NCBI GenBank assembly: GCA_965221165.1
Contig: CBDCRP010000003.1
Location: forward strand, 1 to 64,000
DNA from: a bacterium
GTDB lineage: Bacteria > UBA8248
DNA length: 64,000 bases
Direction of reading: 5' to 3'
Position 1 is the stretch's first letter, and every line of letters starts with the position of its first letter. A program made the translations under genes and the position numbers. The notes under the pieces are model-generated. The model made no database searches. It had not been told where the DNA came from and was given only the letters and a program-made list of their open reading frames with translations. This document shows positions 55,319-60,627 of the stretch, in pieces.

Positions 55319-56175
55319 GCGAGGTCATGAACGAGGACAGGGATGGACGCCCCCTTGCGGGCAGGCGAATTCTCGTTACGCGCCCTGATGAAGGGGCATC
55401 GCGCATGGGCGAGATGCTCGCGGACCTGGGCGCCTGCGTGCTCCTTGCGCCCATGATACGAATTACGGAACCTGAGGATTGGACGCCGGTGGATGCGGCG
55501 ATCCGCGCGCTGGATAAGTATCAATGGATAATTTTCACGAGCCCGAACGGGCCGAAATTTCTGGTGAAAAGGCTTGATGATCTGGGCGTCGCCCCTGAGG
55601 TGATCTCCATCAAAACTTCCATTCTGGCCGTCGGACCCGCCACGGCCGCAGCGGTGGAAAAACATCTGCGAAGAACACCCGAGAAGGTGGCCGGAAAATA
55701 TGTGGCCGAGGGCGTCGTCGCGCTGTTCGAAGGCCGGGATATGGCGGGAGAACGCGTTTTGCTGCCCCGGGCGAAAGAGGGGCGCGACGCCATCCCGCAG
55801 GCGCTTTTGAAAATGGGGGCCATCCTGGATGACGTGGCCGTTTACCGGACAACGCCTTTGGGACGTGAAGCGCTGCGCGAGGCGTGGGGAGAGCTTGAGG
55901 CCGGAAAAATTGATATGCTTACCTTCACGAGTTCCTCGGCGTTCGATGGCTTCATGAGGGCGGCGGGCGAGGAGAGGGCGAAGGGATGGATGAGGCGCGC
56001 GCGCGTGGCCACCATCGGGCCAGTGACCGCCGCCACGGCGCGCATATGGGGGGTCGCGCCGGATGTGGAGGCCGCCGAATCGACGATTCCCGGCATGGCG
56101 CGGGCCATCGTCTCGTTTTATCGGGAACAAGAGACGGCGAACGATACGCAGAAAACGGAGGATGAAATTTCATGA
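55315..56175 (+). CDS. hemD: Uroporphyrinogen-III synthase
   Basis: ILVTRP, FTSPNG, VGPATA, AVYRT, FTSSS, IGPVTA. Confidence 0.93.
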
Positions 56176-57209
56176 TGCCTGACGACAATTTAATACTCTC
56201 GGCTCTCGCGGGCGAGGTGAGAAACCGCACGAGGCGAACGCGGGAGACGGCCGCCATGCGGCGCATGGTGCGCGAGACGAGACTTTCCGTGGATAACCTC
56301 ATCTACCCGATGTTCGTGGTCGAGGGAGAGGACATCAAGCGGGAAATTTCCTCGATGCCCGGACAATACCAGCTCTCCGTCGACCGGCTCGTGGCGGATT
56401 GCGCGGAAATAGCCGCTCTCGACATACCGGGCGTCATCCTGTTCGGCATTCCCGATCATAAGGACGACCTCGCGAGCGGGGCTTACGCGGAAGACGGAGT
56501 CGTCCAAAACGCGGTGCGCGCGCTCAAGGAAGCCTACCCCGAGCTTTGCGTCATCACGGATGTTTGTCTTTGCGAATATATGGATCACGGCCATTGCGGC
56601 ATCATCGAGGGCGAGAAGATACTGAACGACCCCACACTCGAGCTTCTCGACCAGACGGCGGTGAGCCACGCGGAGGCGGGCGCCGACATCATCGCCCCAT
56701 CGGACATGATGGATGGCCGCGTCGGCTCGATTCGCACGGCCTTAGACGCTGCGGGATTCACCCAGACGCCCATCATGGCTTATTCGGCGAAGTTCTCGAG
56801 CGCCTACTACGGGCCTTTCCGCGAGGCGGCGGAGAGCGCGCCCGCCTTCGGCGACAGGAGTTCCTACCAGATGGACCCGGCCAACGCGCGCGAGGCCATG
56901 CGCGAGATAGCCTTCGACATCGAGGAGGGGGCGGACATCATCATGGTGAAGCCGGCACTCGTCTATCTGGACGTCATCGCCCGGGCGCGCGAGATGATGG
57001 ACCTGCCCGTCGCCGCCTACAACGTATCGGGCGAGTTCGCCATGCTGGCGGCGGCGAGCCGCAACGGGTGGCTCGACCCCGAGCGCGCGTTCACCGAAAT
57101 GCTCACCTCCATCAAGCGAGCAGGGGCTGATATCATCCTCACATACTTCGCAAAAGACGCCGCCAGAAGACTCAAGGGCGACGCCGCCACGCCGCTCTCG
57201 TGGATGTAG
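56172..57209 (+). CDS. hemB: Porphobilinogen synthase (Zn-type)
   Basis: [48 protein letters not shown]. Confidence 0.97.
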
Positions 57210-57233
57210 GGGGCTTTCAAGAAAGTCGAAAAA

Positions 57234-57262
57234 TTGACATATTACGCGATGGAGTATACCTT
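57234..57262 (+). promoter_or_regulatory. Sigma70-type promoter for the two-gene cassette
   Basis: TTGACA (57234-57239), 17-nt spacer, TACCTT (57257-57262). Confidence 0.55.
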
Positions 57263-57371
57263 CGATTCTTGAGTTGAATGGTCCGGGAGGGGTATCGAAC
57301 CTCACGAGTCGATGTTGGACTTCTGCTTTTCGCCTCGGCGTATTCGCCTCACAGAAAGAAATGGTGACGGA

Positions 57372-57575
57372 ATGGGCAAGAAAAAGAAAAAGACGGAACA
57401 AAAAGTGATTGTGTATCGCTCGGGGGTTTTGAACCACGCCGACGCGGATAGATTCGAAAAGGCGTGCGAGGCATACCTCAAGAAAATATCGAAATCAAAA
57501 AAAGCCGCGAGGGAGGCTCTTGTCAGGTTGGGGACCCACACGCCCGACGGACAACTTACCGAACGATTCAGGTAG
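57372..57575 (+). CDS. Small basic protein (67 aa), candidate antitoxin
   Basis: MGKKKKK...AREALVRLGTHTPDGQLTERFR; its stop lies 3 nt before the next start. Confidence 0.7.
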   Translation: MGKKKKKTEQKVIVYRSGVLNHADADRFEKACEAYLKKISKSKKAAREALVRLGTHTPDGQLTERFR

Positions 57576-57578
57576 AAA

Positions 57579-58166
57579 TTGCACCGACTAACGACGACTT
57601 TCGTGCTTGGATATCACGGGTGTGACGAGGCCGTGGCCGAGCGACTTATCTCCGGCGAACCATTTCAAAAAAGCATAAACGATTACGACTGGCTCGGTCC
57701 CGGAATCTATTTCTGGGAAGCCAACCCGCTCCGTGGGCTCGAATTCGCGGCTGAACTGCAGAACGCCCCCTGGGGTTCCGATATTACGACTCCTGCGGTT
57801 GTCGGGGCGATTATCGACCTCGGATTTTGCCTTGATTTGACGACGGCGGCGGGTATCCGGCAGGTTCGGGCCGCGCACGCGAGTTACATTTCAAACTGTG
57901 AACAAACAGGGGACGTAATCCCCCAAAACTCAGCGGATGCGAATTATCTTCGTCGTCAGTTGGATTGCGCAGTATTCACGCAGTTACATCAAATTCGCGA
58001 AGATGACGAAGATCAGCCCATAGACACCGTGCGCGGGGTCTTCGTGGAAGGCGAGCCGGCATATGAAGGGGCCGGTTTCCGCGCGAGAACCCATATCCAG
58101 ATATGCGTCTGCAATACCTACAGCATCAAAGGCTTGTTCCGGGTGCCCAAAGATCAACTGTTGTAG
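57579..58166 (+). CDS. ADP-ribosyltransferase-like protein, candidate toxin
   Basis: GYHGC (His13), WLGPGIYFW (Tyr44), IDL..CLDL and C-terminal HIQICV strand, resembling H-Y-[E/Q] clade ARTs. Confidence 0.7.
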   Translation: MHRLTTTFVLGYHGCDEAVAERLISGEPFQKSINDYDWLGPGIYFWEANPLRGLEFAAELQNAPWGSDITTPAVVGAIIDLGFCLDLTTAAGIRQVRAAHASYISNCEQTGDVIPQNSADANYLRRQLDCAVFTQLHQIREDDEDQPIDTVRGVFVEGEPAYEGAGFRARTHIQICVCNTYSIKGLFRVPKDQLL

Positions 58167-58425
58167 CGGCGTTCAACCCGACTCACCATCACCCCTTCTC
58201 ACGGCACTATCCAAAGCAAAAAATACTTGTTCTCGCACGGCGGATTTGACTTGTAGGAGCACGGATGAAACGTGAAGGCTTCCATCTGGAGCTTTCATGC
58301 TCATCTCACCCTCCACACGCACTCCCCTTGCGCTTCGCTTCGCCTTGGCGTTATGTTGAGGGCAAGAGAAAAAGATAAAACTGAAATTTTGTTTTCCTTA
58401 CATTTGAACCGGGAGGAATAGGGGA

Positions 58426-59616
58426 ATGTCGGATAAGGATATCGTTTTTCTGGGCGGAGCGCGGACGCCGTTCGGCGCTTTTCTGGGCGCCTTGAAGGAG
58501 ATGTCGGCCACGGAGCTGGGCGCGCTGGCGGCGAAAGAGGCGATGACGCGCGCAGGCGTTACGCCCGAGGATATCGACCACACCGTGGTGGGCAACGTCA
58601 TCCAGTCGAACTCGGACGGCGTCTACATCGGAAGGCACGTCGCGCTGGCGGCGGGCGTCCCGCTGGACAGGCCCGGCTACTGCGTGAACCGCATGTGCGC
58701 CTCGGGCTTTCAGGCGGTGGTGAGCGGGGCGAAGGAGATTATGACCGAAGACGCCGACGTGGTGCTCGCCGTGGGGGCGGAGAACATGAGCCTGACGCCG
58801 CACGTGATCAGAAATTCCAGAACCGGCATGAAACTCTTTCAGGCCCCGATGGAGGACGGCCTCTACACGGCGCTCACCGACACGCACGCCAACGTGCCCA
58901 TGGGCATCACGGCGGAGAATCTGGCGGATAAATACGACCTGCACCGCGAGGCGGTGGATGAGTTCGCAGCTTTAAGTCAGGCGCGCACACACGATGCGTG
59001 GGAGAGCGGACGGCTGGCGGAGGAATGTTTCGCCGTCGAGGTGAAAGAGCGCAGAAAGACGATTACTTTCGATCGCGACGAGCACCCACGTGCGGATTCG
59101 AACGAGGAATCGCTCGCGAGGCTCAGGCCCGCATTCAAGGAAGACGGCGTGGTGACGGCGGGCAACGCGAGCGGCATCAACGACGGGGCGGCGGCGCTCG
59201 TGATTTCCTCGCGCGCGGCGGCGGAGCGTTTAGGGCGCAAACCCATCGGGCGGCTCGTCTCCTGGGGCGTTTCGGGGTGTGATCCCAAAATCATGGGCAT
59301 CGGCCCGGCGGAGAGCAGCCGCATCGCGCTCAGGAAAGCGGGTTTACAACTCGACGACATGGATTTACTCGAGATAAACGAGGCGTTCTCCGCCCAGTAT
59401 CTCGCGGTGGAAAAAGATCTGGGCCTGGACCGTGAGAAGACGAACGTGAACGGCGGCGCCATCGCCATCGGCCATCCCGTGGGCGCAAGCGGAGCGCGGC
59501 TCACCCTCACGATACTGCATGAGTTAAGACGCCGGGGCGGGAAGTACGGTCTGGCGGGCGCCTGCATCGGCGGCGGCATGGGCCTCTCGGTGATCGTCGA
59601 GGCGTATGGGGATTAG
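58426..59616 (+). CDS. Acetyl-CoA C-acyltransferase (thiolase)
   Basis: NRMCASG, TAGNASGINDGA, NEAF, GHPVGASG, CIGGG. Confidence 0.96.
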   Translation: MSDKDIVFLGGARTPFGAFLGALKEMSATELGALAAKEAMTRAGVTPEDIDHTVVGNVIQSNSDGVYIGRHVALAAGVPLDRPGYCVNRMCASGFQAVVSGAKEIMTEDADVVLAVGAENMSLTPHVIRNSRTGMKLFQAPMEDGLYTALTDTHANVPMGITAENLADKYDLHREAVDEFAALSQARTHDAWESGRLAEECFAVEVKERRKTITFDRDEHPRADSNEESLARLRPAFKEDGVVTAGNASGINDGAAALVISSRAAAERLGRKPIGRLVSWGVSGCDPKIMGIGPAESSRIALRKAGLQLDDMDLLEINEAFSAQYLAVEKDLGLDREKTNVNGGAIAIGHPVGASGARLTLTILHELRRRGGKYGLAGACIGGGMGLSVIVEAYGD

Positions 59617-59692: not shown

Positions 59693-59750
59693 GTTTACCT
59701 TGCCTTGGGCGCGATAGAGTTGATTTAAGGGGCGGATCAAACCTGAAAAA

Positions 59751-59780
59751 TTCGATAAATATCGATAAAATACGATAAAT
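59751..59780 (+). repeat. Three tandem 10-bp direct repeats (WWCGATAAAW)
   Basis: TTCGATAAAT ATCGATAAAA TACGATAAAT upstream of the crotonase gene. Confidence 0.65.
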
Positions 59781-59844
59781 TAGCGGGGTTTTTCCGTAAA
59801 TTTATTTTGGTGAATACAGACTTGAGGAATAGGACGATAAACCA

Positions 59845-60627
59845 TTGAATTATAACAATTTGATATATGAAACGGACGGGCCGATCGCCATTTGCACGTT
59901 CAACCGTCCTAAAGCATTAAATGCTTTGAATACAGAGACGATGGATGAGTTTTCTCATGTGATATCTACTTTTAAAGATGATAATGGTCTGAAAATATTG
60001 ATATTAACGGGTTCAGGTGATCGGGCTTTCATCGCAGGGGCGGACATCAAGGGCATGGTGGGCCGAAGTCCACTCAGCGCAAAGTGGCTCTCGGAACACG
60101 GTACGAAAATCTTGAGAAACCTGGAAACCATTGGAAAACCTTCGATTGCGGCGGTGAACGGATTCGCCCTGGGGGGCGGCTGCGAGGTGGCGATGGCATG
60201 CTCCATTCGGTTGGCGTCGACGAACGCGCTCTTCGGCCAGCCGGAGATAAATCTGGGGATTATCCCCGGCTACGGCGCTACCCAACGACTTCCTCGGCTC
60301 GTCGGAGCGGGGAGGGCCCTTGAGATTATGATGACTGGTGATCCGGTAAACGCTGAGGAAGCCCACCGCATCGGCTTGGTGAATAAGGTTTGCGAGCCGG
60401 ACGCCCTGATGGATGAGGCGAAAGCGCTGGCTGGAAAGCTGGCGTCCAAGAGCAAACCTGCTATTGAACTGATTTTACAGGCCGTTCACGGTGGACTGGA
60501 GGGCGGCCTCGAGGAAGGTCTGACACTCGAAACCGAGAAATTCGCCTTGGTGAACAGCACGGAAGATTCACAGGAAGGCCTCGGCGCATTCATCGAGAAA
60601 CGTCGCGCCGATTTCCAGGATCGCTAA
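59845..60627 (+). CDS. Enoyl-CoA hydratase (crotonase)
   Basis: NRPKALNALN, FIAGADI, GFALGGGCE, GQPEINLGIIPGYGATQRL (both catalytic Glu present). Confidence 0.95.
   Translation: MNYNNLIYETDGPIAICTFNRPKALNALNTETMDEFSHVISTFKDDNGLKILILTGSGDRAFIAGADIKGMVGRSPLSAKWLSEHGTKILRNLETIGKPSIAAVNGFALGGGCEVAMACSIRLASTNALFGQPEINLGIIPGYGATQRLPRLVGAGRALEIMMTGDPVNAEEAHRIGLVNKVCEPDALMDEAKALAGKLASKSKPAIELILQAVHGGLEGGLEEGLTLETEKFALVNSTEDSQEGLGAFIEKRRADFQDR

Follow-up and report, generated by a model that had tools for sequence, protein, structure and literature searches.

The DNA considered here, hereafter called the window, comprises 64,000 nucleotides (positions 1 to 64,000 of contig CBDCRP010000003.1, assembly GCA_965221165.1) from a bacterium of the lineage UBA8248. 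Between hemB and a thiolase gene it carries a two-gene cassette on the forward strand, which a sequence-only reading of the window had proposed as a candidate toxin–antitoxin (TA) or anti-phage system. The first gene (57372..57575, stop codon 57573–57575) encodes a small basic protein of 67 aa with the Lys-rich N-terminus MGKKKKK, the candidate antitoxin. After an intergenic gap of 3 nt (57576–57578) follows a TTG-started gene (57579..58166) for a protein of 195 aa, the candidate toxin, which is predicted to adopt the fold of an ADP-ribosyltransferase (ART). The Lys-rich open reading frame (ORF), the gap and the TTG-started ORF were all present as that reading had described them. In the program-made list of ORFs the small frame began at an earlier ATG (57312), which would yield 87 aa. 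As this codon is missing in one congener (L095) and distant relatives of the small protein measure 48–76 aa, we took the internal ATG at 57372 as the likely start.

Upstream, the cassette is flanked by hemC-hemD-hemB (ALAD/hemB match, E 8e-152), while the thiolase gene directly follows it downstream, and then an enoyl-CoA hydratase gene. The GC content of the cassette (0.50–0.57) was lower than that of the upstream hem genes (0.58–0.68) and of the thiolase gene (0.60–0.68), and the impression that it is more A/T-rich than its housekeeping neighbours was thus borne out. Low GC content and an alignment with three empty sites delimited an inserted segment of ~1.0 kb with the approximate boundaries 57215..58240 (forward strand), reaching from the hemB stop codon to the conserved region upstream of the thiolase gene. 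Within the genus, both ORFs were found to be under purifying selection, with ratios of nonsynonymous to synonymous substitution rates (dN/dS) of 0.15–0.28 for intact copies of the ART gene and of 0.08–0.50 for the small gene. Since each of them has many relatives as well, both ORFs can be regarded as more than chance frames.

The AlphaFold2 model of the 195-aa protein was of high confidence (predicted local distance difference test score, pLDDT, 95.2; predicted template modelling score, pTM, 0.90) and showed strands at residues 8–16, 42–47, 72–80, 84–86, 150–155, 172–177 and 183–188. When the model was compared with the PDB, Foldseek returned exotoxin A bound to eEF2 (E 1.2e-3), cholix toxin, PARP1/2/4, AcrIF11 and MbcT. 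VIA-align, which is independent of Foldseek, aligned the model with 48,161 chains, 36 of which reached Z >= 5. Judged by their titles, these chains were mostly PARP domains, toxins of the diphtheria-toxin group, RES/ParT/NatT/MbcT toxins and Rhs ART toxins; DarT, Arr and Tpt1 appeared lower in the list (Z 3.8–4.5). Matches of the model in BFVD were ART-PolyVal domains. The motifs to which the sequence-only reading had pointed, YHG (residues 12–14), WLGPGIYFW (38–46) and HIQICV (172–177), were present in the protein. Furthermore, when the window protein was aligned with 91 full-length relatives chosen as representatives (A1, 92 sequences), H13, W38, G40, G42, Y44, G76, C84, D129 and F187 proved invariant and G14 near-invariant. 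Both H13 and Y44 were thus conserved in 92/92 sequences, Q174 in 89/92 (E in two, S in one), H172 in 90/92 and E157 in 87/92. In the H-Y-[E/D/Q] clade, His resides on strand 1, Tyr on strand 2 and Glu, Asp or Gln on strand 5 (PMC7955679). The residues of the putative triad occupy the respective positions in the model, with H13 in strand 8–16 (strand 1), Y44 in strand 42–47 (strand 2) and Q174 in strand 172–177 (strand 5), where strands are numbered by their order in the model and the putative assignment of Q174 follows this order. Because the list of matches was uniform and the motif conserved, we accepted an ADP-ribosyltransferase fold of the H-Y-[E/D/Q] clade for the modelled protein. The earlier assignment to the His-Tyr-[Glu/Gln] ARTs of the diphtheria-toxin/PARP clade therefore stands as a high-confidence prediction, and the structural comparison called for at that time returned ART proteins with both programs.

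The third position of the triad deserves consideration. A Gln in place of Glu, together with the occurrence of TASOR (6tl1) and PARP13 (4x52) among the structural matches, would suit a catalytically dead ART-fold protein, i.e., a pseudo-enzyme like these two, in which case the pair would act by binding alone, for instance as a nucleic-acid-binding complex. However, the invariance of H13, Y44 and G40/G42 and the near-invariance of G14 are typical of a preserved NAD+ pocket, and Q is an accepted third residue both in the active H-Y-[E/D/Q] clade and among CmdT relatives (PMC7955679 and PMC11618068). We hold this explanation to be highly improbable.

At the sequence level, neither the 195-aa protein nor the small protein was assigned to a significant family by Pfam or NCBIfam. 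A direct sequence search of the PDB with the 195-aa protein found nothing, and a profile search gave rows at chance level alone (ornithine aminotransferase, E 0.02; exotoxin, E 1.3). Relatives were nevertheless abundant. A 90%-identity collection contained 4,767 of them at E <= 0.001 among 4,851 candidates, and an exhaustive search yielded 2,450 clusters (50% identity) at E <= 0.001 and 1,269 at E <= 1e-10. The 120 relatives listed were all named 'hypothetical protein' by their sources, and none of them carried a precomputed Pfam domain. When 92 relatives were scanned with Pfam, five matched PARP and four matched Exotox-A_cataly (E 7e-4 to 0.1), which can be taken as a hint only. The phage protein family phrog_14664, whose function is uncharacterised, matched the window protein over its full length (E 2e-15) and also matched 92/92 relatives. 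The PADLOC model PD-T4-9_A, which represents CmdT, matched the window protein at residues 7–50 (E 3.4e-5) and 87/92 relatives (best E 1.9e-9), suggesting that the ART is distantly related to this mRNA-modifying defence toxin. A literature search covering CmdTAC, DUF3990, NetFlax in combination with ADP-ribosyltransferase, and ART/TA turned up no account of the two-gene family, subscription journals and supplements being outside its scope.

The structural matches also included a series of RES-type toxins, namely MbcT (6fkg, Z 7.6), NatT (8qnl, Z 7.3), VPA0770 (8gug, Z 7.1), ParT (6d0h, Z 6.7) and a RES toxin from Pseudomonas putida (9r35, Z 6.0). These matches are in agreement with a scenario in which the two genes follow the same TA logic, but the ART would kill by destroying NAD+ as a glycohydrolase or phosphorylase, like MbcT and NatT, with no macromolecular transfer. 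The replacement of the usual catalytic Glu by Gln in 89/92 relatives points in the same direction. Between the RES rows and the PARP/diphtheria-toxin rows the difference in Z was below 1, so that they are to be read as tied. Yet the conserved residues are H-Y-Q and not the R-E-S of RES domains, a Pfam RES match was found neither in the window protein nor in the 92 relatives, and sequence similarity favours CmdT, PARP and exotoxin A. We thus regard a toxin that merely consumes NAD+ as unlikely.

Two phage proteins came to light in the course of these searches. The top row of the VIA-align list was chain B of PDB entry 9k3a (residues 1418–1605; Z 8.0, 149 residues aligned), an ejection protein from the pre-ejectosome of cyanophage A4. 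A term search of the paper describing the structure showed that 'ADP-ribosyl', 'transferase' and 'NAD+' are absent from it. Given the structural match and the absence of these terms, the A4 ejection protein may carry an ART-like domain that has so far gone unremarked. In addition, Synechococcus phage S-B28 encodes a hypothetical protein of 117 aa between an hli gene and psbA (MK016662.1 24341-24694; L104 2968-3321), which shares 37.6% identity with residues 9–92 of the ART (E 8e-11) and covers the N-terminal half of the fold only.

The small protein of the window has a pI of 10.1 and a net charge of +10. Its structural model (pLDDT 82) consists of a disordered, Lys-rich N-terminus (residues 1–21), two helices (22–39 and 43–53) and a short C-terminal hairpin that bears a conserved G54/G60/Y66 motif. 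In an alignment of 38 small proteins (A3), G60 was invariant, while F28, A46, L50, G54 and Y66 were nearly so. Basic character was found in 33/38 members (median net charge +9), the other five being short acidic variants. Pfam scans of the 38 proteins revealed no shared family but scattered single-member matches only, and the one NCBIfam match of the small protein, to the cg0963 family, remained below threshold (E 0.0014; 18.7 bits versus a cut-off of 85). Likewise, the small protein was without match in PADLOC, a scan that included the PD-T4-9 models, and in a Foldseek search against the PDB at E <= 0.001. A profile search collected 94 proteins, all of them annotated as 'hypothetical'. According to the model, the small protein would thus represent a basic two-helix protein with a novel fold.

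Within the genus, the small protein (57372-57575 in the window; L004, L005, L008, L091, L092 and L096) occurs in two C-terminal allele types, ending in ...REALVRLGTHTPDGQLTERFR and ...QKALQKLGIYTPTGRIAKRYR, respectively, and one congener (G020) harbours a hybrid. The ARTs that are paired with the ...QKALQKLGIYTPTGRIAKRYR type are the more divergent ones, with 72–74% identity to that of the window. This pairing of allele types is consistent with cognate specificity.

We then asked how firmly the two genes are linked in other bacteria. A scan covering one genome per species turned up 220 relatives, of which the best 80 loci were retained; according to their record titles, these belonged to Nitrospinota, Alphaproteobacteria, Binataceae, Acidobacteriota, Vulcanimicrobiota and one Flavobacteriaceae genome. 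A hidden Markov model (HMM) of the small protein was built from the last 52 residues of the window copy and 24 ORFs of these loci, and its search space consisted of every stop-to-stop frame with 30 aa or more that these 80 loci contain. The HMM detected exactly one frame in 79/80 loci (55/56 non-seed loci), and in every case this frame immediately preceded the ART gene in the same orientation. In the locus missed (L066), a 49-aa ORF with the motif was present, and the small gene thus preceded the ART gene in 80/80 loci. Irregularities were seen in L032, which looks frameshifted, and L074, where the C-terminus of the small protein is divergent. The sequence-only reading had named a lack of co-occurrence elsewhere as an argument against its proposal; instead, the pair was recovered almost throughout.

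The ART genes started with TTG in 44 loci, GTG in 21, ATG in 12, CTG in two and ATT in one, as judged by the codon aligned with residue 1; a non-ATG start was thus used in 68/80 loci. The gap from the stop codon of the small gene to the ART start ranged from -1 to 25 nt in 78/79 loci. Given these two counts, the weak start and the tight coupling are features of the whole family and not an accident of the window copy, and the order with the small gene first and a weakly started toxin gene, which had been noted for the window, holds across the 80 loci. When all ORFs around the pair that measured 90 aa or more were clustered for the window and the 80 loci, no third gene emerged that is shared beyond the close kin of the window. 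Out of 141 ORFs picked from the flanks, 96 from 49 loci were scanned with Pfam. The hits were unrelated housekeeping genes, e.g., FtsH, exonuclease VII, fumarase, DnaE, trigger factor and glutamate synthase, and SecB, macrodomain and NADAR proteins were not among these 96 ORFs. Clustering and Pfam scan hence agree with the earlier statement that the cassette comes with neither a macrodomain nor a SecB-like chaperone and matches the architecture of neither DarTG nor CmdTAC.

The family is also mobile. Relatives were found in 70 plasmid records, 66 of them with a coverage of at least 80%; 35 plasmids were conjugative, 11 mobilizable and 24 non-mobilizable. In 7/7 plasmid loci inspected, a small ORF of 57–76 aa with the motif preceded the ART gene (four detected by the HMM, three by eye). 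The plasmid neighbours comprised resolvase, ParA/MipZ and Rep genes (Pseudomonas amygdali p4; Acinetobacter pBspH6), HipA and CopG-RelE/ParE modules (Aliarcobacter), an AbiEii toxin gene (Hydrogenimonas) and tra genes (Rhizobium, Komagataeibacter). In the window, the cassette corresponds to an indel of ~1 kb at a fixed hemB/thiolase site: in three empty sites that were fetched (congeners G019 and G006; G029 from another genus), hemB and the thiolase gene are spaced by ~210 nt, and the window is ~1.0 kb longer.

Profile searches were extended to 61 genomes, i.e., the genome of the window (G000), 22 congeners and 38 others, with the ART and small-protein searches being combined for the congeners. 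Both genes were present in 6/22 congeners (G010, G011, G016, G018, G020 and G022), whereas an intact small gene without full-length ART occurred in 9/22 (G002, G003, G004, G007, G012, G013, G014, G017 and G021). The reverse, an ART only, was found in 0/22, and neither gene in 7/22 (G001, G005, G006, G008, G009, G015 and G019). Full-length ARTs were thus restricted to 6/22 congeners, compared to 0/14 other genomes of the family. Seven of the small-only loci could be mapped end to end and showed the order hemB, intact small gene, ART codons 1–15, a filler of palindromic repeats and the thiolase gene. Some decayed loci keep the last 34–48 ART codons before the thiolase gene, and G013 retains about 40 ART codons with a breakpoint near codon 37–40. 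Both C-terminal allele types of the small protein were represented among the decayed loci. An apparent divergent ART fragment in G014 was rejected as a separate gene, being a decayed remnant of the same gene in which residues 69–86 are still recognisable. The orphan small genes were intact in 7/7 cases and displayed a median pairwise dN/dS of 0.21 (21 pairs), compared to 0.20 for paired copies (15 pairs). Part of the divergence among the orphans may, however, predate the loss of the ART.

The filler itself is a side observation. In G002, G007, G014, G017 and G021, the deleted main part of the ART gene has given way to a palindromic repeat with inverted GTCATTCCGGCGAAAGCCGGAATCCAT arms, which occurs in direct and inverted copies and resembles a miniature inverted-repeat transposable element (MITE; L091 2760-3300, L096 340-1090, L105 1777-2800, L106 and L107). 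Its left junction, after ART codon 15, is identical in two allelic backgrounds of the small gene, which suggests target-site preference or recombination. The MITE-like repeat was not found in the window.

Taken together, we consider it probable that the cassette is a self-contained two-gene module of the TA type and belongs to a new, chaperone-free family with a CmdT-like ART, for which we infer toxicity, binding and target. This assumption builds on the conserved pair, the small gene in first position, the weak and coupled start of the ART gene, the absence of a shared third gene, the residence on plasmids and the asymmetric decay. Generic features of type II TA systems are present as well, namely a co-directional, coupled pair with the gene in the antitoxin position first and a mobile, patchy distribution that includes plasmids. 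The ART would act as an NAD+-using ADP-ribosyltransferase with H13, Y44 and Q174 as its triad. The small protein would bind and neutralise it and possibly aid its folding; the presumed contact is the most conserved part of the small protein, the C-terminal hairpin with the pattern G-x-x-T-x-x-G-x-L-x-x-x-Y. Since the ART start is weak and directly follows the stop codon of the small gene, the neutraliser would be made first and in excess. Loss of the small protein through proteolysis, phage-induced shut-off of transcription or loss of the plasmid would free the ART, which would then ADP-ribosylate an essential target, so that growth stops. By analogy with CmdT, the target is most likely a nucleic acid, and we propose RNA as the probable one.

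Several observations weigh against this reading. The structural matches were modest, with Foldseek TM-scores of 0.34–0.42 and a best VIA-align Z of 8.0, in a scale on which values below 8 may reflect a mere common arrangement. The placement of Q174 as putative third catalytic residue follows from strand order in the model, and with Gln instead of Glu the chemistry could be weak or altered. The similarity to CmdT spans only the N-terminal ~45 residues. Neighbours resembling TA or abortive-infection genes accounted for 3/96 flanking ORFs (MqsA, RES and an AbiEii-type AAA protein), i.e., the flanks are not enriched in defence genes. The net charges of the two proteins did not covary (rho -0.05, p 0.65, 77 pairs). 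A search for longer, fused relatives, which is weak evidence, yielded a single protein of 384 aa and no fusion to Rhs proteins or polymorphic toxins. Moreover, most of the small-only genomes share a common breakpoint (codon 15), so that the asymmetric decay reflects few independent events, perhaps one to three.

A last point on this side concerns inheritance. Since the synonymous divergence (dS) of the cassette is similar to that of hemB and the thiolase gene in the genus, the cassette is vertically inherited there at one site between housekeeping genes, with which a domesticated function is compatible as well. The ART might then be a non-toxic regulatory enzyme, and the small basic protein its substrate, a targeting subunit or a folding helper. 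For a helper there is precedent in CmdA, which is needed for the folding of CmdT (PMC11618068), and the flanks of the pair in other genomes are mostly housekeeping genes, too. Furthermore, the purifying selection that persists on the small gene after loss of the ART indicates that it has some function of its own. On the other hand, the cassette is patchy within a single genus, with empty sites, and 70 plasmids carry relatives next to genes for maintenance and TA functions. The ART was never found apart from the small gene, which in turn often stands alone, and the start codon of the ART gene is systematically weak. A housekeeping regulator is not expected to combine such features, and we deem domestication quite unlikely.

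Among known systems, CmdTAC bears the closest comparison with the TA-type module proposed here. In CmdTAC, formerly PD-T4-9, an anti-phage system of E. coli, the gene for the ART toxin CmdT comes first and is followed by those for the antitoxin and a SecB-like chaperone (PMC9519451). CmdT carries the triad HY-[E,D,Q], loses its function upon Y41A exchange, requires CmdA for folding and ADP-ribosylates the N6 position of adenine in GA dinucleotides of single-stranded RNA (PMC11618068). The two systems share a stand-alone ART of ~190 aa from the H-Y-[E,D,Q] clade, which the PADLOC model of CmdT recognises in 87/92 members, and an adjacent gene for a small two-helix partner, as in the case of CmdA (PMC11618068). 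They differ in gene order, with CmdT preceding CmdA (PMC9519451) and the small gene coming first here, and in the SecB-like chaperone, which is absent here. The partners also differ: CmdA comprises 121 aa (10.1101/2024.02.24.581848) compared to ~67 aa, and the small protein ends in a structured hairpin, without the long disordered C-terminal tail that confers chaperone addiction.

DarTG is likewise a two-gene TA system with an ART toxin acting on nucleic acid, and DarT structures matched the model weakly (Z 4.3–4.5). Here, however, no DarT match was obtained with Pfam, and neither a macrodomain nor a NADAR protein is encoded that could reverse the modification. With no reversing enzyme, neutralisation would have to proceed by binding, unlike in DarTG. 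RES-Xre, ParST and MbcTA resemble the cassette by their antitoxin-first order of two genes and the ART fold of the toxin (structural matches with Z 6.0–7.6). They are set apart by R-E-S residues where H-Y-Q is conserved here, with no RES match by Pfam in the window protein and 92 relatives, and by antitoxins of the helix-turn-helix (HTH) or helical type, in contrast to a small protein without Xre/HTH match. Finally, a protein-language-model search of the ESM Atlas placed clusters automatically named 'DUF3990 domain-containing' among the nearest (score 0.97), while a true PF13151 cluster scored 0.86. DUF3990 (PF13151), an uncharacterised family, belongs to the ART clan of Pfam (PMC7955679) and is found as a domain at the C-terminus of Rhs5 from one strain of Serratia marcescens (PMC4524185). 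PF13151 itself matched neither the window protein at E <= 1 nor any of the 92 relatives at E <= 0.1. The link thus consists of feature-based nearness in the ESM Atlas only, and the relation, if real, would be remote.

ART toxins are an emerging class of effectors in TA and anti-phage systems, with DarT acting on DNA, CmdT on mRNA and RES toxins on NAD+. If the proposal is true, it adds to them a widespread ART TA family that extends over many phyla, 70 plasmids and one phage protein family and has no name in Pfam or NCBIfam. A protein of ~60 aa would then suffice to control a CmdT-like enzyme, whereas CmdTAC uses a SecB-type chaperone as its phage sensor, and control without a phage-sensing chaperone raises the question of the trigger. 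As the small protein lacks recognisable fold relatives, it may also embody a new mode of ART inhibition. The system is compact (~0.8 kb), and the natural 'antitoxin-only' alleles in the genus provide a ready comparison. A bolder version, which we offer tentatively and consider rather doubtful as a whole, would make the cassette the prototype of a very large and so far nameless branch of chaperone-free CmdT-like ARTs (at least 2,450 clusters at 50% identity). Its members would be held in check by small basic antitoxins with an alpha-alpha-hairpin and would stop translation through ADP-ribosylation of RNA by an H-Y-Q triad; they would serve in plasmid addiction and abortive infection, with orphan antitoxins conferring immunity against incoming plasmid or phage copies.

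With respect to expression, the sequence-only reading had assigned the cassette a promoter of its own, TTGACA-17-TACCTT. A consensus promoter scanner did not call a sigma-70-type site in 57100-58500; it missed this candidate because TACCTT matches just 3/6 positions of TATAAT. In an alignment of 10 genus copies, however, TTGAC was invariant (sixth base A in 9/10, G in L095), and so was a GTATA block further downstream. In view of this block we prefer TTGACA-N15-TATACC as the reading of the promoter, which makes it a plausible predicted promoter of the cassette (57234..57260, forward strand). The -35 element TTGACA (57234–57239) of the original proposal was therefore retained, while its -10 element TACCTT (57257–57262) gives way to the overlapping and better TATACC (57255–57260) after a spacer of 15 nt. 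Between the promoter and the small gene lies a conserved leader of ~110 nt (57263..57371, forward strand), a presumed 5′ untranslated region that is kept in the 10 genus copies. Rfam matched no family in the cassette including the leader, and the leader did not fold better than shuffled sequences (z = +1.1). Just 3′ of the putative -10 element, several congeners (L087, L088 and L089) display the palindrome TTGAAC-N5-GTTCAA, a degenerate form of which is present in the window (57278–57295). This palindrome might serve as an operator through which the basic small protein regulates its own expression.

Metatranscriptome contigs from two runs of one study covered positions 57180–57605, i.e., the leader, the small gene and the first nine ART codons, and left the body of the ART gene uncovered. 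These contigs are 95–96% alike to the window, and a relative, perhaps an 'antitoxin-only' one, is possible as their source; DNA may also occur in RNA libraries. For these reasons, the contigs do not demonstrate that the small gene is expressed, nor that the ART gene is silent.

Two minor observations concern the surroundings of the cassette. The assembly holds the hemB-cassette-thiolase region twice, with G000:C2:50443-51027 (-) (L084/L086) corresponding to window positions 56172–59616. In the second copy, the ART is 89% and the thiolase 97% identical, and the contamination of the assembly is estimated at 8.47%. As the same hemB-cassette-thiolase region is found again, we rejected the idea of a paralogue at another site; the second copy probably stems from a bin that merges two related strains, and a duplication is less likely. 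Further downstream, the spacer that separates the thiolase gene from the enoyl-CoA hydratase gene exhibits a sharp AT-rich dip with a GC content of 0.36 (window positions 59700–59999).

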